From Candidatus Sysuimicrobiota bacterium (GTDB lineage: Bacteria; Sysuimicrobiota; Sysuimicrobiia; Sysuimicrobiales; Sysuimicrobiaceae), in contig PSLI01000047.1 in the NCBI GenBank assembly GCA_040289515.1, forward strand, positions 1-12,894: DNA of 12,894 nt, in the 5' to 3' direction. The notes under the pieces are model-generated. The model searched no databases. It had not been told where the DNA came from and saw nothing but the letters and a program-made list of their open reading frames with translations. The first letter of the stretch is position 1; each line of letters opens with the position of its first letter. The translations under genes were made by a program, and so were the position numbers. Shown here piece by piece: positions 1 to 12,894 of the stretch.

Positions 1-1
1 T

Positions 2-94
2 GTCGCCCACATAGAACACGACCGCCGTGGTGACCGCGACCGCCGAGACCAGGAGGCCAAGGACGGCGATGATGCGCGCTTGCGCCGGTGTCAC
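2..94 (-). CDS. 5' end of a hypothetical membrane-anchored or secreted protein (runs off the left edge)
   Basis: GTG at 94-92 with GGGAG 6 nt upstream (101-105). The open frame MTPAQARIIAVLGLLVSAVAVTTAVVFYVGD has a basic residue followed by a ~20-residue hydrophobic segment. It is absent from the ORF track because it is truncated. Confidence 0.65.
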   Translation of the reverse strand, partial: MTPAQARIIAVLGLLVSAVAVTTAVVFYVGD

Positions 95-146
95 CGCAGG
101 CTCCCAAGAGTGGACCTGCCCAGCTTACGCCAGGCGGTCTTCGTGA

Positions 147-157
147 ATGGTATCACA
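147..157 (-). promoter_or_regulatory. Putative extended -10 promoter (TGTGaTACCAT) for the gene starting at 94
   Basis: Minus strand reads TGTG-A-TACCAT, matching TRTG-n-TAnnnT, about 50 nt upstream of the GTG. No recognisable -35 element. Confidence 0.4.
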
Positions 158-248
158 GCCGTCGCGGCCGTATGGGGAGGCGACGCATGAGCGCGACTGG
201 GGAGTATGGCCTCTTAGGGATAAGGGTCCACGCGATCAGGCGCCCACG

Positions 249-2090
249 CTACTCCACGGTCACCGTTTTGGCCAGGTTGCGCGGCTGGTCTACGTCCTTG
301 CCCAGCCAGACGGCGAGCTCGTAGGCGAGGAGCTGGAGCGGCACCACCGTGACCAAGGGTAGGAGCAGCGTCGGCACGTCCGCTGGCACGGTGAGCACGT
401 GCTCTGCCACGGCAGCCAGTCGCTCGTCCCCCTCGCTGCCCACGACCACCACGAACCCATCCCGCGCGCGCACCTCTTGGATGCTGTTGACCATCTTCTC
501 GAACAGGCCATCACGCGGCGCCAGGGCGACCGTAGGCATGTCCCGGTCGATAAGCGCCAGCGGACCGTGTTTGAGCTTGCCAGCCGGGTAGCCCTCGGCA
601 TGGATATAAGACAGCTCCTTGAGCTTGAGCGCCCCTTCCAAGGCAACCGGAAATTGCAGGCCGCGGCCCAAAAACAACGCCGAGTGCGTATGCGCCAACC
701 GGCGCGCGATCTCTTTGACCGGGCCGGGACGGGCTACGGTTCGCCCTACCAGGTCGGGTACGCGGGCAAGGTCGGCGAGCAAGCCGCCCAGGCGTTCCTC
801 GTCCACGGCACCGCGGGCCTCGGCCAGCCAGCAAGCGAACAGATACAGCACGCTCACCGAAGCCACGAAGGTCTTGGTGGAAGCAACGCTGCGTTCCGGG
901 CCGCAGAAGGTGTACAGCACACCGTCGGCGATGCGGGTGGAGGCGGCGCCCGGTGTGTTGCACACGGTGAGCACGGTGGCACCCCGCCGTTTGGCCTCGG
1001 CCATCGCCTCCAGCGTATCGGCGGTCTCACCGGACTGGGCCACGGAGATCACGAGTGTATCCGCATCGAGCACAGGGTCGCTGTAGCGGAACTCGGAGGA
1101 GTCCTCGGCGAGGGCGGGGAGGCGGGCGATACGCTCCAGGTACAGGCGGCCGAGCATCGCCGCGTGCTCAGAGGTACCCATTCCCACCAGCACGACACGC
1201 CGAAAGGCGGCCGCCCGTGCCGGTGTGAGCGGCGCCTCTAACCGCACGCGGGGCGGCATGAGCGAGAGGTAGGGGCGGATGGTGGCGAGCAGGGCGTCCG
1301 GCTGCTCGTGCACCTCCTTCTCTAGAAAGTGGCGGTAATTGCCTTTCTGGGCCTGCCACTCGTCATACGGCACGGTCTGTGGCGTCTTGCTCACCGGGGT
1401 ACCGGTGGCATCCACGTAGCGGGCGCCGGTCTGATCGAGGCGGACGAACTCCCGGTCGTGGAGAAAGGCTACCCGGCGGGTGTGTGGCAAGAGGGCGATA
1501 AGGTCGGAGGCGAGCAGCATTTCGCCCTCGCCGTAACCCACCACGATGCCGCCGGCGTTGCCTAACCGCGCGGCCACCAGCACGCGTGGCTCACTGCGTG
1601 CCATGGCCACGATGGCGTTTGCCCCGCGCAATTCGGCGGCGGCCAGGCGCAGGGCGGTGAACAGGTCGGCCTCGGCACGCCGATGCTCCTCCAACAGATG
1701 GGCGATCACCTCGGTATCGGTCTCGGAGACGAAGCGGTGACCGGTGGCCAGCAGGCGCGCGCGCAGCTCGGCGAAGTTCTCCACGATGCCGTTGTGGATC
1801 ACGACCACATCGCCGTGGCAGTCGCGGTGGGGGTGGGCATTGGTATCGGTCACCGCGCCGTGCGTGGCCCAGCGGGTGTGGCCGATCCCCACCGTGCCCG
1901 GCAGCGGGTCCTGTTCCAACAGCTCCCGCAGCCGCGACAGCTTGCCCGCGGCCTTGCGCACCCGCACGGTGCCGTCGTGGGCCACCGCCACCCCCGCGGA
2001 GTCGTAACCCCGGTACTCCAGCCGGCTCAGCCCGTCCAGCAGGATGGGGGCGGCGGACCGACCGCCGATGTAGCCCATGATGCCGCACAT
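249..2090 (-). CDS. glmS: Glutamine--fructose-6-phosphate transaminase (isomerizing)
   Basis: 613 aa. N-terminal nucleophile MCGI, LEYRGYDSAG, GHTRWATHG, HNGIVEN, SIS-domain QSGETADT, VASTK, EGALKLKELSYIHAE, KHGP and C-terminal PRNLAKTVTVE. RBS GAGGAG upstream of the ATG. Confidence 0.99.
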   Translation of the reverse strand: MCGIMGYIGGRSAAPILLDGLSRLEYRGYDSAGVAVAHDGTVRVRKAAGKLSRLRELLEQDPLPGTVGIGHTRWATHGAVTDTNAHPHRDCHGDVVVIHNGIVENFAELRARLLATGHRFVSETDTEVIAHLLEEHRRAEADLFTALRLAAAELRGANAIVAMARSEPRVLVAARLGNAGGIVVGYGEGEMLLASDLIALLPHTRRVAFLHDREFVRLDQTGARYVDATGTPVSKTPQTVPYDEWQAQKGNYRHFLEKEVHEQPDALLATIRPYLSLMPPRVRLEAPLTPARAAAFRRVVLVGMGTSEHAAMLGRLYLERIARLPALAEDSSEFRYSDPVLDADTLVISVAQSGETADTLEAMAEAKRRGATVLTVCNTPGAASTRIADGVLYTFCGPERSVASTKTFVASVSVLYLFACWLAEARGAVDEERLGGLLADLARVPDLVGRTVARPGPVKEIARRLAHTHSALFLGRGLQFPVALEGALKLKELSYIHAEGYPAGKLKHGPLALIDRDMPTVALAPRDGLFEKMVNSIQEVRARDGFVVVVGSEGDERLAAVAEHVLTVPADVPTLLLPLVTVVPLQLLAYELAVWLGKDVDQPRNLAKTVTVE

Positions 2091-2143
2091 CTCTGTCTCC
2101 TCAGGCCCGGACGTCGGGCGGACCTCCGGTGTGACCGGCCGGG

Positions 2144-3271
2144 CTAGCCTGCGGCCGCCGGCTCTGCCTCGCGCGTCAGCACGAACTCCTTCTCCAGTGC
2201 CTCCAGACGCGCCACGATACCCCCGTACTCCAGCTCCGACATGGGCAGCATGGCCGGCCCGAAGAATCCCTGCCGGCGCATCTCCATGGCCTTGCTGGCC
2301 GCGTGCAGACGCACCTGGGCCCAGAAGGGGTCCGCGAACAGGTCCGTGGGCTCCGTGAAACGGCCTTCGTGTACGGAGAAGGCCAGCCCCGACACCATGG
2401 GCACGCAGAAGAAGGTGCTGGCCGGGGTGTTGATGGGCACCGGCATCAGGGGCAGGTTGTGGCTCCCCCGAGTGTCCCCGGCCACAAAGGGCGCCAGGGC
2501 GAAGGGAGGCCCGAACTCCTCCGTGGCGGGGAAGATCTTCTGTACCCGCACCACGGCCACGGGGTCGTCCTTGCCCACGTACCGTCCCGCGATGTTGCGC
2601 AGCCGGGTGGTGGACACGGCCGCCGCCTGCTCGTGGGGGTACTTGCGGGACCAGATGGACTCGATCACGTACCGGTGCGTGTCCCGCAGCAGCGCCGCGA
2701 TGTCGTACAGGCGCTCGGGTGCATCGAGGGTGATGAACCGGTCGCCCTCCGTGTAGTCCACGTCCATGATGCGGAACCGGAACCCCTGGTGCAGGTCCGG
2801 CGACAGGAGCAGCCCCGAGGAGTACATGGGGTCTGCGAAGGCCAGATAAAGGGGCAGGTTGAAGGCCCCCGGCTCCGTCTTGTCCGCGGCGAACACCACC
2901 ACCGCCTCGTTGGGCCGCTCCTCGAACTCCATCTCCGCCGCCGCGGGCCCCAGGCCCCGCACGTTGCCGGAGAAGGCATCCTTCAACAGGTCCTGGCCCG
3001 CCCCGTACAGCCCCTGTTGCCAGGCCACCTCAGCGCCCGCTCGGAACGCCTCCCACGCCAGGGCGTGCACCTCCGGGTGGCCCACCCCGTGACGGTGGGA
3101 CAGGATGAGGCACACGTCGTCCCCGGTGTGGGCCACGTAGGCGTCCTCCAGGAGCTTACCGCGCTGCGCGAAAACCCGGTCCCGCACCGCCTCCAGGACC
3201 CGCTGGCTGGGCTGGGTGTGCCCGCCCACGCTCCCAATGTCCGCCTTGATGACGCTCAGGGTGGTTCGCAT
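2144..3271 (-). CDS. fbp: Bifunctional fructose-1,6-bisphosphate aldolase/phosphatase (class V FBPase)
   Basis: 375 aa from ATG 3271, preceded by a strong RBS (GAGAGGAGGGG). Family motifs KADIGSVGGH, HTGDD, GLYGAGQDLLKDAFSGNVRG, DKTEPGAFN, RLRNIAGRYVGKDDP (Schiff-base Lys and catalytic Tyr) and RGSH. The ORF-track start at 3325 is an upstream extension. Confidence 0.97.
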   Translation of the reverse strand: MRTTLSVIKADIGSVGGHTQPSQRVLEAVRDRVFAQRGKLLEDAYVAHTGDDVCLILSHRHGVGHPEVHALAWEAFRAGAEVAWQQGLYGAGQDLLKDAFSGNVRGLGPAAAEMEFEERPNEAVVVFAADKTEPGAFNLPLYLAFADPMYSSGLLLSPDLHQGFRFRIMDVDYTEGDRFITLDAPERLYDIAALLRDTHRYVIESIWSRKYPHEQAAAVSTTRLRNIAGRYVGKDDPVAVVRVQKIFPATEEFGPPFALAPFVAGDTRGSHNLPLMPVPINTPASTFFCVPMVSGLAFSVHEGRFTEPTDLFADPFWAQVRLHAASKAMEMRRQGFFGPAMLPMSELEYGGIVARLEALEKEFVLTREAEPAAAG

Positions 3272-3303
3272 GCTCGCTCCCCTCCTCTCACACCTTAAGA
3301 TGA

Positions 3304-3336
3304 CCTCCGGCCCCACGGACACCACGTGGGCCGAGG
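3304..3336 (-). other. GC-rich stem-loop in the fbp 5' leader
   Basis: Minus strand CCTCGGCCCACG-TGGTGTC-CGTGGGGCCGGAGG gives about 12 bp with two bulged G and a 7-nt loop. No U-tract follows. Confidence 0.5.
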
Positions 3337-3414
3337 ACGTTCGAAGTTATCCACTGAGCGGGACCCGCCGCGCAAAGGTGGGACGCCTGGCGCGACAGTC
3401 AGCGTGGCGTTCAA

Positions 3415-3605
3415 AACCGGCCGGCAGCCTTTTGTCCCGAGGTCGCCCCCAAGGCTTTGTCAGCTGCCTTTTGCGTACCGGATGGGTTTCCGGAGGCCCG
3501 CCGGTCAGCCTGAGGTCACCCGCCGAGCAGGAGGTTTTTCGCCTCCCGTCGAGATCCCTCACCTCGTCAGCCCGCGGCCCAACCGCCGCCACGGGCCCTG
3601 GCGCT
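3415..3605 (-). ncRNA. glmS ribozyme (GlcN6P-activated self-cleaving riboswitch, Rfam RF00234 family)
   Basis: Minus strand elements: cleavage motif A^GCGCC (3605/3604). P1 GCCCGUGGC/GCCGCGGGC (3596-3588/3578-3570). Conserved GACGAGG (3568-3562). P2 UGAGG/CCUCA (3561-3557/3515-3511). P2.1 CGAG/CUCG. P2.2 strand UCGGCGGGUG (3526-3517). P3 GGCU/GGCC, whose loop GACCGGC (3506-3500) pairs with 3' GCCGGUU (3421-3415) as the P3.1 pseudoknot. P4 GGCAGCU/GGCUGCC with A-rich internal loop ACAAAG/ACAAAA. P4.1 capped by a GCGA GNRA tetraloop. Confidence 0.95.
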
Positions 3606-3654
3606 CAAACCCAGGTGGTCCCCTCCCACCTCCTTCCCCGCAGCTCTGCCTTGT

Positions 3655-3683
3655 TGTGTACCACCTCGGGCTGGATCCCGCAA
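3655..3683 (-). promoter_or_regulatory. Putative sigma70/sigmaA promoter for the ribozyme-fbp-glmS transcript
   Basis: TTGCGG (-35, 3683-3678), 17-nt spacer ending in TGG, then TACACA (-10, 3660-3655, extended TG). The final T of the -10 consensus is missing. It would start transcription about 45 nt 5' of the cleavage site. Confidence 0.45.
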
Positions 3684-3762
3684 CCGACCAGCTGGTAATT
3701 TCCCACCCTCCGAACGACGCGCCGCACGGACCACAGGTGCCCGCCCGCGGTGCCGGCTAGGT

Positions 3763-4137
3763 CTAGCGCCCGACGCCAGCCTGCCATACCCCCACCGCCA
3801 CCAGCCCCAGGACCACCGCCAACAGGTTCACCAGCAGGTCCTCCAGCTGCGCGGCCCGGTAGGGCAAACACCGCTGCACGCCCTCCAGCAGCAGCCCGTA
3901 CAGCCACGCAAGCACCGCAGCGCGGGCCGGCGGCAGCCTCTGCGCCAGGAGCACCGTGAGCCCCGAGAAACCCACCAGGTGGTAGCCGGGACCGCCGGGC
4001 TGCAAGCCGTGAGGCCCCAGGGGCGGCAGCACCCCACCCACCGCGGTGGCCAGCATCCATGCTCCCGTCACCAGGCGCCAGCGGTCCTGCCTCCCGGAAG
4101 GCCCCGCATGCCGCGGCCTGCGCCACCCGCGGGTCAC
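3763..4137 (-). CDS. VanZ-like family small membrane protein
   Basis: 3' part of ORF 3763..4905. Hydrophobic helices with YHLVGFSGL and LEGVQRCLPYRAAQLEDLLVN (E-x-x-Q-x-x-x-P-x-R...D...N pattern of VanZ-like proteins). GTG overlaps the glmM stop (GTGA). An alternative ATG at 4056 has a GGGAG RBS, so the start is uncertain. Confidence 0.75.
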   Translation of the reverse strand: MTRGWRRPRHAGPSGRQDRWRLVTGAWMLATAVGGVLPPLGPHGLQPGGPGYHLVGFSGLTVLLAQRLPPARAAVLAWLYGLLLEGVQRCLPYRAAQLEDLLVNLLAVVLGLVAVGVWQAGVGR

Positions 4138-5495
4138 AAGCGGCAGTTCTCCCGCAGGAACTCCGCGAGCTCTTCCGCCGCGCGGCGTGCGAACTCTGGG
4201 TCCTCGTGTTCCACCATCACCCGTACCACGGGCTCGGTCCCGGAGGCGCGTACCAGGACGCGACCACGGGCTCCCAGGGCCCGCCGTGCGGCCTCCACCC
4301 GTGCTTGAACTTCCGGATCCTGCAATCGCACGCCAGCTGCGGGACCCGCGGGCACGTTCACCAGCACCTGCGGGTAGCGGGGGATCCCCACCACCAGCTG
4401 GGACAGGGGGCGGCAAGACTCCTGCATCACCCGCACCAGCTGCAAAGCCGTGAGGAGGCCGTCGCCCGTGGTGGCCAGGCGTCGGAAGATCACGTGCCCG
4501 CTCTGCTCCCCACCCAGCACCGCGCCCAGCTCTTCCATGCGTTCCAGCACGTACCGGTCTCCCACCGGCGTGCGTTCCAGCTGGATCCCCTCCGCCTGCA
4601 GGGTCAGCTCCACCCCGAGGTTGGTCATGACGGTGGCCACCACCACGGGCGGGTCCAGCTGCCCGCACGCCCGCAGGTGCCGCGCGCACGCCGCCAGGAT
4701 CAGGTCCCCGTCCACCACCGCACCGGTTTCGTCCACGGCCACCACGCGGTCCGCGTCGCCGTCGTGGGCGAAGCCCACGTGCGCCCGGTGCTCCACCACG
4801 GCCCGCTGCAGGATCGAGGGGTGGGTAGACCCGCAGCCCACGTTGATGCGGGAGCCGTCCGGCTGCGCGTGCAGGGCCACCACGTGGGCCCCCACAACGT
4901 CCCACAGCCGCGGAGCCAGCCGGTACGCGGCCCCGAAGGCGCAGTCCACCACGACCCGCAGCCCTCTGGCTTCCGGCGCGTGGCGCAGCAGGTAATGCAG
5001 GTAACGGTCCTCCGCGTGGGGGAAGTCCTCCGCCAGCCCCACCTCCAGACCCACCGGGCGCGGGATGCTCTGCGCGAGGGCTGCCTCGATCCGGTCCTCC
5101 AGCTCATCCGGGAGCTTCCGGCCGTCCGGGCCGAAGAACTTGATGCCGTTGTCCTCGATGGGGTTGTGGGATGCCGACACCACCACACCGGCCCGCGCGC
5201 TCACCTGGCGGACGAGGTACGCCACCGCGGGGGTCGGCAGCACGCCCGCCCGCAGCACCCGGGCGCCCCCGGAACACAGGCCGGCCACCAGGGCCGCCTC
5301 CAGCATGGGACCGGACAGGCGGGTGTCACGCCCCAGCAGGAACGTGCCACGACCCAGAACCTCCGCCGCGGCCCGGCCCACGGCCAGTGCCAGCTCCGGC
5401 GTTAGCGTGTCGTTGGCCACCCCGCGGATGCCGTCCGTGCCAAACAACCGCTGCGGCCCGTTGTGGCCTGCCCCGCGAAATCCTGGAGCCTGCAC
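4134..5495 (-). CDS. glmM: Phosphoglucosamine mutase
   Basis: RLFGTDGIRG, phosphoserine loop SASHNP, metal loop DGDADR, GGEQSGH and RASGTEP. GGGGAGG RBS (5507-5501) directly after the cdaR stop, before GTG GTG (start 5498 or 5495). Gives about 453 aa. Confidence 0.97.
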   Translation of the reverse strand: MQAPGFRGAGHNGPQRLFGTDGIRGVANDTLTPELALAVGRAAAEVLGRGTFLLGRDTRLSGPMLEAALVAGLCSGGARVLRAGVLPTPAVAYLVRQVSARAGVVVSASHNPIEDNGIKFFGPDGRKLPDELEDRIEAALAQSIPRPVGLEVGLAEDFPHAEDRYLHYLLRHAPEARGLRVVVDCAFGAAYRLAPRLWDVVGAHVVALHAQPDGSRINVGCGSTHPSILQRAVVEHRAHVGFAHDGDADRVVAVDETGAVVDGDLILAACARHLRACGQLDPPVVVATVMTNLGVELTLQAEGIQLERTPVGDRYVLERMEELGAVLGGEQSGHVIFRRLATTGDGLLTALQLVRVMQESCRPLSQLVVGIPRYPQVLVNVPAGPAAGVRLQDPEVQARVEAARRALGARGRVLVRASGTEPVVRVMVEHEDPEFARRAAEELAEFLRENCRL

Positions 5496-8515: not shown

Positions 8516-11245
8516 CTAACCCGTGGTCTGCAGCCCCGCGGCGATCCCGTTGACGGTCCGGTGCAGCAGCTCCGCCACCTGGGGGTCCTCGGGATGGGCC
8601 CGGCGCTCCCGCAGCAGGCGCACCTGCAGGTAGCTGATCGGGTCCACGTAGGGGTTGCGCAGCCGCACGGACCGTTGCAAGATGGGCGAGTTGTCCAGCA
8701 GCTCCCGCTGACCCGTGAGCTCCAGCACCCGCTGGACGGTGACCTCGTACTCCTCCCGGATGCGGCAGTACAGGCGCTCCCGCACGGGCTCGTCCACCAG
8801 CTCCGCGTACAGCCGCGCTACCTCGAGGTCCGCGGTGCCCAAACTGATCTGGGCATTGTCCACCACGGACCGGAAGAAGGGCCACGCCGCGTACATGGCC
8901 CGCAGCTCCGCCATGGCCCCGGGGGTTTCCCGGGCGAATCCGTCCAGGGCGCTTCCCAAGCCGTACCAGCCGGGCAGGTTGGTGCGGGTCTGCGTCCAGG
9001 CGAACACCCAGGGGATGGCGCGCAGATCCTCCACCCGTCCGAAGCCCGTGCGGGACGCGGGCCTTGACGCCATGGTGGTGCGGCCGATCTCCTCGATGGG
9101 GGTGGCCTGCACGAAGTAACGCGGGAAGTCCGGGTCGTCCACCAGGGCCCGGTAGGCTCTCCGGCTGTCCTCGGCCAGGTCATCCATGATCGCCTCCCAC
9201 CGACGCAGGGCCTCGGGGTCCTGCGTGGGGGTTGGCGCCAGGGCGGCCCGCAGGACGGCCCCGGTGAGCTGTTCCAGGTGGCGACGCGCGATGCGCGGGT
9301 TGCCGTAGCGTGCTGCCAGCACCTCGCCCTGCTCCGTGAGCTTGAGCCTCCCCTCCCTCGCCGCCTCCGAGGGCTGGGCCAGGATGGCGCGCTCCGTGGG
9401 TCCGCCGCCCCGGCCGATGGCGCCCCCACGGCCGTGGAACAATCGCAGGCTGCAGCCGTGGCGGCGCGCCACCTCCGGCAGGACCTTCTGCGCCCGGTAC
9501 AGGGCCCAGTTGGCTGCCAGGTACCCGCCGTCCTTGTTGCTGTCGGAGTACCCCAGCATCACCTCCTGCACGTCCCCCCACGCCCTCAGGTGGGCGCGGT
9601 AGGCGGGGGTACGCAGCAGCTGGTCAAGGATGTACCCACAGCGCCGCAGCTCCTCCACGCGTTCAAACAGGGGCACCACCTGCAGCCGGCTCGTGACCCC
9701 CTCGCCCTGCCGTCGGTACAGACCCGCCAAGCTGGCCAGCCACAGCACCTCCAGCACGTCGCTTGCAGACTCCGTGAGGCTCACGATGTACGTGCAGCAC
9801 GCTTCCAGGCCGAAACGCTCCTGCCACCGCGGCAGGGCCCGGAACAGCCGCACCACCTCCGCGGCCTCCGGGTCCTCCGGCTCCACCTCCAGGGCAGGGG
9901 CGTCCAGGAGCCGTTCCAGCAGGCTAGAGCGCTGCTCCTCGGGCAGGCCCAGGTAGTCGTCCGCCACACCGGCTCTGCGGAGCAGGTGAGCCACCGTGCG
10001 GCCGTGCACCTCGCTGGCCTGGCGCAAATCCAAACTGGCGAAGTGGAAGCCGAAGGTGTGGACCCGTACCACCAGGTCCTGCAGGCGGCCCCGGGCCAGA
10101 CGGCGCCCCCGGTGCGCTTCCAGGCTGCGCTGCAGGACTTCTAGGTCCTGCAACAGGGCGCCGGGCGCTGCGTACCCTCCCGGCAGATACTGCAGCGTGC
10201 GCCGCAAGCGCTCCCGCACCACCCACAGCTTGCGGCGGTACGGCTCGGTGGCGGGAGGGAAGTCGGGCTGCAGGCGCAGGTGCGGGAACCTTTCCAGGTC
10301 GCGCTGCAAGGATTCTGCCAGTTCGCTACTCACCCCCGCCCGACGTGCCGACACAGCCAGTTCCCGGGCCAGGACGTCCACCTCCTCAAGGTACAGATGC
10401 AGCACCCGCTCCCGCTGCAGCTCGAGGGTCCGCTCGGTAACCTCCACCGTCACCAGGGGATGCCCGTCCCGGTCCGCCCCCATCCACGAGCCGAAACGCA
10501 GAAACGGGCGTACCGCCCCCTGTGCCTCGGGCGCGTAGTGCTCCACCGCCTCCTGCAGGTCCCGGAACAGGACCGGGGCCACCCGCCACGCGCTGCGCTC
10601 CAGGTAGTACAGGCCGCCCAGCACCTCGTCCAGGGGTGTGGGCCGGCGGGCGCGCACATCGTCCACCTGCCACACAGCTGTGATCTCCGCCAGCAGGCCG
10701 TCCAGGGCCCTGCGGCGTTCCTGAGGGGTGGACTCGGCGTCGTTGAGGACCTCCAGCAGGTCCGCCACCGCCCTCAGGTGGACCATTACCGCGGCCCGGC
10801 GCGCCTCCGTGGGGTGCGCGGTGAACACCGGGCCCACCTCCAGGCCTTCCAGCAGGGAAGCCACCCGTCCGGCGGGAACCCCTTCCGCCCGCAGGGCTCT
10901 CAACGCCGCGGCCACGGACTCCGGCCGCGGTGCCGGATCTCCGCGGATCTCCCGATCCCGCAGGGTGCGCAGGCGGTGGTGCTCTTCGGCCAGGTTGATG
11001 AGGTGGAAGTACAGGGTAAAGGCGCGGATCACCGCATCCGCCTCCGCCAGGTCCAGGGATCCCACCAAATCCCGGAAGGCGCGTTCCCGCTCCGGCGATG
11101 GGTCGGTCCTCCGGGCGATGGCCAGCCGGCGGATGGCCTCCACCCGCTCCAGCAGCTGCGGGCCACCTTGCTCCTGCAACACCTGCCCCAGGAGGCTGCC
11201 CAGCAGCCGCACGTCCTCCCGGAGGCGTTCGATGGGGACGCGCAC
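8516..11245 (-). CDS. ppc: Phosphoenolpyruvate carboxylase (bacterial type)
   Basis: 909 aa. VFTAHPTE, SWMGADRDG, QEVMLGYSDSNKDGG, FHGRGGAIGRGGGP, TEQGE, SRPASR, LRAIPWVFAWTQ, LRNPY and C-terminal GIAAGLQTTG. Confidence 0.98.
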   Translation of the reverse strand: MRVPIERLREDVRLLGSLLGQVLQEQGGPQLLERVEAIRRLAIARRTDPSPERERAFRDLVGSLDLAEADAVIRAFTLYFHLINLAEEHHRLRTLRDREIRGDPAPRPESVAAALRALRAEGVPAGRVASLLEGLEVGPVFTAHPTEARRAAVMVHLRAVADLLEVLNDAESTPQERRRALDGLLAEITAVWQVDDVRARRPTPLDEVLGGLYYLERSAWRVAPVLFRDLQEAVEHYAPEAQGAVRPFLRFGSWMGADRDGHPLVTVEVTERTLELQRERVLHLYLEEVDVLARELAVSARRAGVSSELAESLQRDLERFPHLRLQPDFPPATEPYRRKLWVVRERLRRTLQYLPGGYAAPGALLQDLEVLQRSLEAHRGRRLARGRLQDLVVRVHTFGFHFASLDLRQASEVHGRTVAHLLRRAGVADDYLGLPEEQRSSLLERLLDAPALEVEPEDPEAAEVVRLFRALPRWQERFGLEACCTYIVSLTESASDVLEVLWLASLAGLYRRQGEGVTSRLQVVPLFERVEELRRCGYILDQLLRTPAYRAHLRAWGDVQEVMLGYSDSNKDGGYLAANWALYRAQKVLPEVARRHGCSLRLFHGRGGAIGRGGGPTERAILAQPSEAAREGRLKLTEQGEVLAARYGNPRIARRHLEQLTGAVLRAALAPTPTQDPEALRRWEAIMDDLAEDSRRAYRALVDDPDFPRYFVQATPIEEIGRTTMASRPASRTGFGRVEDLRAIPWVFAWTQTRTNLPGWYGLGSALDGFARETPGAMAELRAMYAAWPFFRSVVDNAQISLGTADLEVARLYAELVDEPVRERLYCRIREEYEVTVQRVLELTGQRELLDNSPILQRSVRLRNPYVDPISYLQVRLLRERRAHPEDPQVAELLHRTVNGIAAGLQTTG

Positions 11246-11314: not shown

Positions 11315-12263
11315 TCAGGCCTCGCGGCCTGTGTGGCGGGCCAGGAAGCCCTCTACCTGTTCACGGGTGGGCAGGGCCGTGGTGGCACCCACACCCGGGG
11401 TGACCAGGGCCCCGACCGCGTTGGCGAACCGCGCCACCTCCTCTAACGATCGGCCCGCGAGCCACTCCACCACGAAGGCGGCGTCGAAGGCGTCTCCCGC
11501 ACCCGTGGGGCCTACCGCGTGCACCGGCCAGGCGGGTACGGTCAGCCGCTCGCCCTCCGCCGTGGCCACCACGCAGCCGCGCTCCGCGCACTTCAACACC
11601 GCCACCCGCATACCCGCGTCGACCACCGCCTGCAGGGTCTCTGTCTCGTGCCGGTCACCCAACACGTACCGGGCGTCCTCCGTGCTGAGGAAGGCCAGGT
11701 CCACCAGGGGGAGCGTCTCCAGCACCAGCACGCGGAAGCGTTCCACGGGCAACAGCTTGGGCCGCACGTTCAGGTCGTAGCTCACCACCACGCCCTTGCG
11801 CCGCGCCCGCTCCATGGCCCAGCACACCGCCTCCCGTGCCGAGGCGGAAGTGGCCTGGCTGATCCCGCTGGTATGCAGCAGGCGCGCCCCCTCCACGGCC
11901 TCCACGGGCACCTCCCGGGCCGACAGACGGCTGGCTGCCGATCCCGCTCGGTAGTACGCGTGAGATGGCTCGTGCCCTTTTCGTCGCACGCAGGAAGTAG
12001 ATGCCCGTGGGCTCGTCCCGAGCCACCTGTACGTAACAGGTGAGCACACCCTCGTGTTGCCACATCCGCAGGAGGGCCCGGCCGAACTCGTCGTCGCCCA
12101 CCCGGGTGACGTACCCCACTTGGGCACCCACGCGCGCGGCGGCCACGGCGAAGTTAGAGGTATCCCCGCCGAAGCCGCGCCGGTACGTGGCGGCGTCCTC
12201 CAGGGAGCCGCCTACCGCGGCGAACTCCACCAGGGGCTCGCCCAGGGAGATCAGGTCCGCCAC
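11315..12263 (-). pseudogene. PfkB-family sugar kinase (2-keto-3-deoxygluconate kinase-like), frameshifted
   Basis: The N-terminal part (GTG 12263: ADLISLGEPLVEF...GFGGDTSNFAVAAAR...VGDDEFG...PTGIYFL) is in the frame of ORF 11655..12872. The C-terminal part (YYRAGSAASRL, LHTSGISQA, SYDLNVRPKL, TGAGDAF, FANAVGAL) is in the frame of ORF 11315..12127. Removing 1 nt near 11960-11990 restores a 315-aa protein. Confidence 0.85.
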
Positions 12264-12270
12264 GCCGCCC

Positions 12271-12894
12271 TCACGCTTCCGGCTGGCCGCGCCCGACCGC
12301 GCCCTGTGACAGCCGTGGGCTCGTTCCCCCGCGAGGCGCCGGCCGGGACTCCTCGGGCCCGGTACGGCCTCGCGCCACGGCATGACGCGGACGCCGGCCT
12401 CGGCGAGGCGGTCGAGGCGCTGACGGTGCTCCAGTGCCCACAAGCGTAGCGCCAGAGCCTCCGCGGGGCTGCGCGCGGGCACGGCATCGCCTGGTGCAAC
12501 GTAGAGCGCGAGCGCCTCGAACCCCCGCGCCCGAAGCTCCGCGAGCACGGCGTCGATCCGCGGGTCGACCAGTGACGTGATCGCGACCACCAGCGCCCGG
12601 GGTGGCAGGATGCGTCGCGGCACGAAGCGGAGATCCTTGCGGACGAAGGCGGGGACCACCGAGGCGTCGCGCAGCCGCCGCAGCAGCCGCCAGGCTTGCC
12701 AGCGGCCGTGGCCCGGTCCCACCCAGTCCAGCACGCCCCCGTAGCGGATCATGCCCACGCGGTGGCCGGACGCCAGCAGGTCCAGGCCCAGCGCAGCCGC
12801 CACCCGCACGCAAGCGTCGAGCGTGGTGGCACCGTCCTCGCCGTGGTTGGCCAGCTCGTCAAGCGGGAGCACGGCCTCGACGTTGCGGAGGGCG
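12271..12894 (-). CDS. C-terminal part of a DUF58-like protein (truncated by the window edge; 3' end irregular)
   Basis: Frame open from the edge: ALRNVEAVLPLD...AAALGLDLLASGHRVGMIRYGGVLDWVGPGHG...LPPRALVVAITSLVDPR...LRARG. This resembles the vWA-like C-terminal half of DUF58 proteins. There is no stop in this frame before the kinase start, so the end coordinate uses the alternative-frame TGA at 12273-12271. Confidence 0.7.

Follow-up and report, generated by a model that had tools for sequence, protein, structure and literature searches.

What does a glmS ribozyme govern when the first gene behind it is not glmS? This question is raised by a stretch of DNA of 12,894 nucleotides, hereafter the window, which covers positions 1 to 12,894 of contig PSLI01000047.1 from a Candidatus Sysuimicrobiota bacterium (assembly GCA_040289515.1, here genome G000). 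On the minus strand of the window, a glmS ribozyme, an RNA activated by glucosamine 6-phosphate (GlcN6P), is followed by fbp, the gene of a fructose-1,6-bisphosphate (FBP) aldolase/phosphatase, and then by glmS. Here, we find that this is a real, family-wide and derived arrangement, in which a known ribozyme has acquired a new first target.

The match to RF00234 runs from 3616 to 3413 (-) and scores 45 bits, where the gathering threshold is 37, with an E value of 5.9e-8. It spans model positions 1-167, which is the whole model, and it is the single match found across the whole genome in an Rfam search. The ribozyme proposed in an earlier sequence-only reading of this DNA is therefore present. 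That reading had put 333 nt between the cut, which separates A-1 (3605) from G+1 (3604), and the start codon of fbp at 3271, and its coordinates were correct. It had also described fbp and glmS as co-directional neighbours with neither a terminator nor an obvious promoter between them. Both genes are on the minus strand, 53 nt separate the fbp stop codon from the glmS ATG at 2090, and the consensus scans agree with the description, as they returned 0 promoter-like sites in window 1-4300 and nothing resembling a terminator from the ribozyme to glmS. The fbp-glmS spacer measures 43-152 nt in all 11 family genomes with DNA at this position; its fold is not better than that of shuffled sequences and no promoter-like site in it is common to the family.

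The arrangement was followed through the 94 genomes of the taxonomic order, of which 69 have a ribozyme match and 71 have fbp. In the family of G000 (f1), the ribozyme lies directly before fbp in 12 of 12 genomes, belonging to three genera, and glmS is the next gene after fbp in all 11 whose contig reaches that far. The usual position of the ribozyme, in the 5' untranslated region (UTR) directly before glmS, is thus not found in any of the 12, where fbp intervenes and glmS is second. The earlier reading had allowed that fbp might be a one-off insertion; the family count, together with 14 of 80 metagenome fbp loci that have the ribozyme upstream, removes this doubt. Twelve of these 14 loci have downstream DNA, and they carry the native-type glmS; some of the 14 may be source samples of the genomes counted. 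Rfam searches of 20 of the 80 loci found no ribozyme missed by the pattern search. Furthermore, contigs of three public runs bridge the ribozyme and fbp; the four runs compared consist of DNA contigs of relatives, and X1 amounts to two short pieces only. Outside the family, glmS is first behind the ribozyme in 35 of 35 loci by tblastn and, judged by its start motif, in 18 of 20 further loci, the other two running off the contig; this check covers these 35 and 20 loci, with four ribozyme-bearing genomes outside it. By coordinates, fbp is adjacent to the ribozyme in 0 of the 57 non-family ribozyme-bearing genomes of the order. Two unpublished genomes are included, G023 as one row in several counts and G076 in tallies only, and neither alone carries a claim.

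The family is presumably HRBIN32 of phylum CSP1-3 (Sysuimicrobiota), an assignment that we made from a protein name. The fbp product falls in a 90% cluster with a protein named for bacterium HR32. HRBIN32 is described as an early-diverging hot-spring family with an optimum near 70 °C (PMC11962464).

Beyond the phylum, a pattern scan of species genomes gave at least 120 matches, 80 of them with flanks, and 66 of these with the cleavage motif, which is a small sample. Among the matches listed, the first gene behind these 66 ribozymes is glmS in 60, nagB in three, an unassigned open reading frame (ORF) in one and a gene for GlmS without its N-terminal domain in one, while the last ribozyme is at the end of its contig. 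The nagB loci are in rumen Clostridia (L130:1226-2017, L154:2346-3170 and L156:2367-3158), and in L130 and L156 nagB is followed by an acetyltransferase gene and glmM. In single loci, the ribozyme leads a GlmS without the glutaminase domain (L191:2336-3460), a 163-amino-acid ORF (L146:1614-2105) and glmM (L233).

How did fbp reach this position? Among 19 other fbp loci that were inspected, 18 are non-family loci, and these adjoin cca and/or parA (gene names from translations); the 19th is a second copy in G002, placed elsewhere. Most non-family fbp genes have, by eye, a -10-like site of their own. In 11 of the 12 family genomes, including G000, cca and parA abut without fbp, so that the ancestral site is empty. 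In a tree of 30 sequences, family fbp falls among the fbp of the order. Most likely, an ancestor of the family moved fbp once, from the cca-parA site to behind the ribozyme leader. A single move is the simplest reading because the ribozyme directly precedes glmS in the sister families and in other phyla. The vacated site in G000 adjoins a gene for a pyrophosphate (PPi)-dependent phosphofructokinase (Pfk; G000:C8:10436-11950). The second fbp copies L118 (G002:C318) and G001:C8:156013-156825 show 76% identity, and that of G002 sits between transketolase-like and rpe-like ORFs.

The fbp product scores 523 bits with NF041126 (cut-off 520), is above the cut-off of PF01950 over its full length, and matches PDB entries 3r1m, 1umg and 3t2b at E <= 5e-88. 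It is 78-95% identical across the family and 89-95% identical to its congeners. In G000, which is 96.7% complete, GlpX, class I FBP phosphatase (FBPase) and class II aldolase were not found, class III FBPase not having been searched, and the sole DeoC-family match is a deoxyribose-phosphate aldolase. Class II aldolase is found in 0 of 12 family genomes. Thus fbp encodes the only aldolase found in the family, and not everywhere the only phosphatase.

Upstream of the ribozyme there is a promoter-like site (Table 1), which may act as the promoter of the ribozyme transcript. All eight genomes of genus g1 have it, at positions -52 to -55 relative to the cut; G009 has TATAAT at -54, and the g1-type motif is present in 16 of 22 distinct family leaders. 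In G010, a promoter-like site lies at -99; a crude scan found none before the ribozyme in G008 and G011. Within fbp and the spacer, promoter-like matches are scattered over three of 11 genomes, and no U-tailed hairpin is common to the leader-fbp-glmS segment of the family. The distance from the cut to the start codon is 315-334 nt in 21 of 22 family leaders, which is inside the 240-431 nt of ribozyme-glmS leaders; the last ~100 nt before fbp are not conserved in sequence. The sequence scans agree with a predicted single transcript of leader, fbp and glmS from the putative upstream promoter. The transcript may extend further, because same-strand genes that read, from their translations, as Trm112-like, acpS, nnr and alr follow the native glmS on contig C36. 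The sequence-only reading had also counted glmM among three consecutive steps encoded at the locus; these steps do not form one regulated unit. The glmM gene lies upstream of the promoter-like site, and three metagenome loci (L312, L313 and L321) have no copy of it in the upstream 2.5 kb. In both L312 and L313 the series of promoter, ribozyme, fbp and glmS stands behind a different upstream gene, so that the unit is complete in itself and does not include glmM.

Each of the 64 leaders analysed has all three core motifs of the ribozyme intact, although the design of the search guarantees two of them. Helices P1 to P4.1 were located, and in the 12 family genomes their stems vary with pairing kept; GlcN6P-dependent self-cleavage of the leader is predicted. 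Three RNAs are left out of the counts of 64 leaders: G017 (divergent core), G085 (masked, contig ends) and G064:C29. The last, L287, is a second ribozyme copy of the family type in an f5 bin with 6% contamination, and probably a contaminant itself. G060 also has a second ribozyme copy, with two glmS loci (L073/L074). In the G017 variant (family f7; L297:650-1000), P1 is greatly lengthened and the core carries an inserted hairpin between P2 and P2.1, and in the f2 leaders L046, L060, L063, L065 and L070, short tandem repeats form long hairpins in P1 and after P4.

Three further elements were found in the leader. The first is a Shine-Dalgarno (SD)-like element without a start codon. Of the 64 leaders of the order, 58 have their best anti-SD site between -36 and -24 relative to the cut; the mean energy is -14.5 kcal/mol compared with -9.7 kcal/mol in shuffles. 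The element is stronger than the SD of the first gene and lacks a start codon at normal spacing in 61 of 64 leaders; an upstream ORF starting there was rejected, as such a codon occurs in three. In other phyla it is also enriched, 25-50 nt before the cut (61 of 96 at <= -8 kcal/mol). The second element is an extra helix, P0, which spans the cut. In f1, all 22 distinct leaders have it with 4-6 contiguous pairs, G009 showing a two-sided change, and it pairs into a hairpin loop with other letters than in families f2 and f5. In all 31 leaders of f2 and f5, P0 links the positions immediately 5' of the cut with the segment that follows P3. There, four core pairs are invariant (31/31), 23 of the 31 leaders have a Watson-Crick fifth pair (G-C, C-G or U-A; 0 of 5000 shuffles, the kin not being independent), 16 of the 31 a Watson-Crick sixth, and the seventh is at chance. 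P0 is not present in f4. The third element is a hairpin with a C-rich loop, which a motif search finds in 20 of 22 distinct family leaders; its stems vary with pairing kept, and alone it is not more stable than shuffles (z -1.34). A translational switch, in which the SD-like element decoys the C-rich loop and the cut frees the loop to block the SD of fbp, is rejected for now. Cognate duplexes in f1 reach -25.3, against -24.7 for other-genus and -24.1 for shuffled ones, and beat the other-genus mean in six of 12; access to the first gene's SD is unchanged by cutting (0.45 vs 0.42) in folds that ignore pseudoknots.

Table 1 Features of the window, in window positions.
Feature	Position	Strand	Basis or remark
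glmS ribozyme	3417..3605	-	RF00234, 45 bits; core motifs located
glmS ribozyme: P1 3598-3569; core 3568-3562; inserted hairpin 3547-3530; P2.2 3' strand 3526-3519		-
glmS ribozyme: P3 3511-3494; extra hairpin 3493-3478; P4 3468-3423; P3.1 3' strand 3422-3417		-
Predicted self-cleavage site A-1/G+1	3604..3605	-	Rfam alignment
fbp, class V fructose-1,6-bisphosphate aldolase/phosphatase, 375 amino acids	2144..3271	-	NF041126, PF01950, PDB matches
fbp ribosome-binding site	3281..3287	-	Sequence; in 12/12 family genomes
fbp-glmS spacer and glmS ribosome-binding site, no U-tailed hairpin	2091..2143	-
Native 5' part of glmS, codons 1-78	1856..2090	-	Continues on contig C36
Very probably foreign DNA: 3' part of Chloroflexota-type glmS (to 249) and flank	1..1855	-	Assembler join
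Putative promoter of ribozyme transcript	3655..3683	-	-35 3683-3678, 17-nt spacer, extended -10 3660-3655
SD-like element without start codon	3626..3634	-	~29-30 nt 5' of cut
5' strand of extra helix P0 spanning the cut	3607..3613	-	Partner loop 3489-3483
Hairpin with C-rich anti-SD-like loop, 3' of ribozyme	3367..3396	-	Conserved
glmM 4134-5492 and VanZ-like ORF 3763-4083	3763..5492	-	Upstream of putative ribozyme promoter

The contig is not sound over its whole length. Window 1-1855 is very probably foreign through mis-assembly, because the native gene continues on C36, the window protein matches P0001, the corresponding paralogue was not found in congeners and the contig ends share 32-mers. 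C36 begins with the exact 32 nt of window 1887-1856 and then carries the native glmS (G000:C36:49534-47914); it is ~81% identical to congener loci over 5 kb, while the window GlmS is only ~51% identical to congeners. The window protein is listed as 100% identical to P0001 over residues 85-613, the N-terminus of P0001 being different, and the P0001 cluster includes a protein from a Chloroflexota metagenome-assembled genome. A Chloroflexota-type glmS paralogue was not found in five of five congeners. The GC content at third codon positions is 0.84 in the 1-1855 part compared with 0.92-0.96. In the G000 assembly, 33 contig ends share such 32-mers, which are the mark of graph branches. A true glmS replacement or a second paralogue in G000 was rejected, with the same high confidence, for mis-assembly; recombination affecting a fraction of the population is an improbable alternative source. 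The ribozyme-fbp-glmS order is unaffected, because the start of the native glmS lies within the window. The GlmS sequence of contig PSLI01000047.1 should be treated as a chimera, unfit for trees, and this 613-amino-acid protein appears to be in a public protein collection (P0145).

On the other side of the ribozyme, the upstream series consists of argF, cdaA, cdaR, glmM (TIGR01455 above cut-off) and the VanZ-like ORF (PF04892 below cut-off). Further upstream of argF-cdaA-cdaR-glmM, on the same strand, is a phosphoenolpyruvate carboxylase gene (8516-11245). A PfkB-family sugar kinase is split across two frames at 11315-12872, possibly by a frameshift or an assembly error.

How might the unit work? 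We consider it moderately probable that fbp is regulated by GlcN6P through a ribozyme-led transcript. The GlcN6P-activated ribozyme would head a message with fbp first and glmS second, fbp having presumably left its own promoter behind on moving from the cca-parA site. At high GlcN6P, the leader would cut itself and the message would be destroyed from its new 5' end, by RNase J where this is intact; the formation of fructose 6-phosphate (Fru6P) out of triose phosphates would fall together with its consumption by GlmS. At low GlcN6P, both genes would rise. Joint control is plausible because B. subtilis on gluconeogenic substrates has ~16-fold less Fru6P, with GlmS then limiting (PMC6171935). 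As to decay, B. subtilis RNase J1 degrades the 3' product, and cleavage that occurs early may precede the loading of ribosomes (PMC10810187). Of the 11 other family genomes, eight have RNase J above cut-off, among them G005 with a 1-nt deletion; its gene, rnj, is cut by contig ends in G002 and G006, and the assembly of G011 has no such locus. The Bacillus decay route is open to most of the family, and probably not to G000.

Several points tell against regulation of fbp by the ribozyme. In G000, RNase J is a pseudogene (C34:48948-50164, L271) with deletions of ~210 and ~135 nt and four frameshifting indels, so that the Bacillus read-out assumed in the sequence-only reading fails in this very genome. 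The ribozyme has C at 3553, where 94 of 97 ribozymes sampled elsewhere carry A; this is an order-wide variant (46 of 47 order loci seen). The usual A, before the 3' strand of P2.1, is presumably A52 of B. subtilis by our own count. The promoter scan was crude, and the site at 3655-3683 is below the threshold of the generic consensus scan. The family is not resolved as a single clade in the fbp tree. The SD of fbp, at -11.4, is stronger than those of glmS in the sister families (-9.4 to -10.3), and glmS could be protected from 5' decay by ribosomes on fbp (PMC10810187). As GlpX is present in five of 12 family genomes, a second fbp copy or fragment in two, and the Pfk of G000 is of the reversible PPi-dependent type (NF041103 above cut-off), fbp is not everywhere the sole Fru6P route. 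Although neither a further FBP aldolase nor GlpX or class I FBPase turned up in G000, the description of this enzyme as the committed gluconeogenic step is weakened by GlpX in the relatives and by the reversible Pfk. Shutting the only aldolase found on account of an amino sugar could also be costly. Finally, the arrangement is one evolutionary event, so the 12 of 12 are not 12 independent tests of benefit, and no convergence is seen, since fbp is the first gene behind 0 of the 66 ribozymes sampled in other phyla among the matches listed.

These last points, with the decayed rnj of G000, the 1-nt deletion in G005 and the other Fru6P routes in five of 12 genomes, also speak for a passive passage, in which fbp landed once behind the leader and was retained for want of a promoter of its own. 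The ribozyme would cut, but with weak or missing RNase J and a strong ribosome-binding site on fbp, cutting would barely alter fbp expression and no real feedback on gluconeogenesis would exist. Such a passive passage is unlikely in our judgement: all 22 family leaders retain the core, P0 and the SD-like element although the leader sequence around them drifts, eight of the 12 family genomes have RNase J above cut-off, and any 5' decay that reaches glmS has to cross fbp first. A promoter of fbp inside the leader, or some other decoupling that leaves the ribozyme as an upstream relic, would have room in the ~145 nt between the ribozyme end and the fbp ATG. The earlier reading had named a dominant independent promoter between 3415 and 3271 as the danger to its view, and no conserved one is seen there: single promoter-like matches occur in two of 12 genomes (G003 and G011), are mutually unlike and are absent in the other ten. 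As the leader has the length of ordinary ribozyme-glmS leaders and the ribozyme is conserved, this explanation is very improbable. That the whole order is an assembly artefact, as the mis-join at 1856 might suggest, is already refuted, since the join is inside glmS, downstream of the unit, and the order recurs in 11 other genomes, 14 metagenome loci and the contigs of three public runs.

Compatible with regulation of fbp by the ribozyme is a read-out that does not depend on RNase J. A 30S ribosomal subunit on the start-less SD might protect or prime the intact transcript; the cut would remove this cap, held near the core by P0, and leave the message open to attack by RNase E/G or by RNase Y, or less well translated. 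We regard this as possible, if doubtful. It accords with the fixed distance of the SD-like element in 58 of 64 leaders and with its being strongest in f2 and f5, where RNase J is mostly missing: the enzyme is above cut-off in 0 of 22 f2 and 3 of 34 f5 genomes, compared with 22 of 23 in f4, and is truly lost at the syntenic site in G035 and G026. The ribozyme is nevertheless kept in 15 of 22 f2 and 20 of 34 f5 genomes. RNase E/G and RNase Y are each present in five of five genomes tested, and in B. subtilis the 5'-OH product is trimmed to a 5'-monophosphate without RNase J (PMC11780869). However, f4, which has RNase J, retains the SD-like element too, and other phyla are enriched in it, so that it is no peculiarity of lineages that lost RNase J; the folds show unchanged access to the first gene's SD after the cut, and P0 has only 4-6 pairs at about 70 °C. 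The fuller proposal, that the cofactor-using ribozyme sets the level of the sole triose-to-hexose phosphate enzyme found and, in RNase J-less lineages, does so by cutting off a ribosome-loaded SD cap held by P0, seems to us rather unlikely.

If fbp is controlled by the ribozyme, with a central-carbon gene first, GlcN6P feedback would extend from the branch-point enzyme to its substrate supply, and a cell-wall precursor would govern gluconeogenesis in a hot-spring family. The phylum also offers a natural test of ribozyme function without RNase J, as f2, in which RNase J was not found, keeps the ribozyme and G000 is losing the nuclease. McCown in 2011 reportedly found all but two of 463 ribozymes in glmS mRNAs. 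PMC6765202 states that the glmS ribozyme occurs only in the 5' UTR of glmS mRNA, and PMC5473149, PMC9495366, PMC2211319 and PMC1635283 place it there. No title or abstract start on fbp behind a glmS ribozyme was found, a direct phrase search being uninformative, and the words glmS and riboswitch were not found in the main text, as available, of PMC11962464 and PMC11604079. The ribozyme-fbp arrangement is likely absent from print. A benefit of the arrangement to the cell may be supposed.

Several known systems can be compared with this unit. STAB-SD 5' stabilisers such as that of cry3A share a strong SD without a start codon near the 5' end; here, the SD-like element is on the piece cut off by the ribozyme and its ribosome binding is putative. 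The protein resembles class V FBP aldolase/phosphatases (NF041126, PF01950; PDB 3r1m, 1umg, 3t2b) in its full-length match and in the aligned Schiff-base and metal-binding motifs. Say and Fuchs reportedly described the one-way aldolase and phosphatase activity of this class in 2010. In the sister families the gene stands alone, whereas here it is placed behind a metabolite-activated ribozyme. The ribozyme-nagB loci of rumen Clostridia share a first gene other than glmS. There, NagB acts on GlcN6P itself, forming or degrading it, and takes the place of glmS, whereas fbp works one step upstream, in central metabolism, with glmS after it. The GlmR checkpoint of B. subtilis likewise couples a gluconeogenic shortage of Fru6P to GlmS flux, but by activation of GlmS at the protein level (PMC6171935). 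GlmR is present in 11 of 12 family genomes, so the ribozyme-fbp-glmS operon does not replace it; its loss as the driver of the fbp move is rejected, as 89 of the 94 genomes of the order have it. The closest relative is the glmS ribozyme of B. subtilis (RF00234; PMC10810187, PMC6171935, PMC6765202), with which the element described here shares the RNA class, all eight helices and the cdaA-cdaR-glmM neighbourhood, as well as glmS on the same predicted mRNA. Unlike in B. subtilis, RNase J is broken in G000, C replaces the usual A at 3553, extra hairpins are found in the core and after P3, P0 extends across the cut, and the first gene is fbp.

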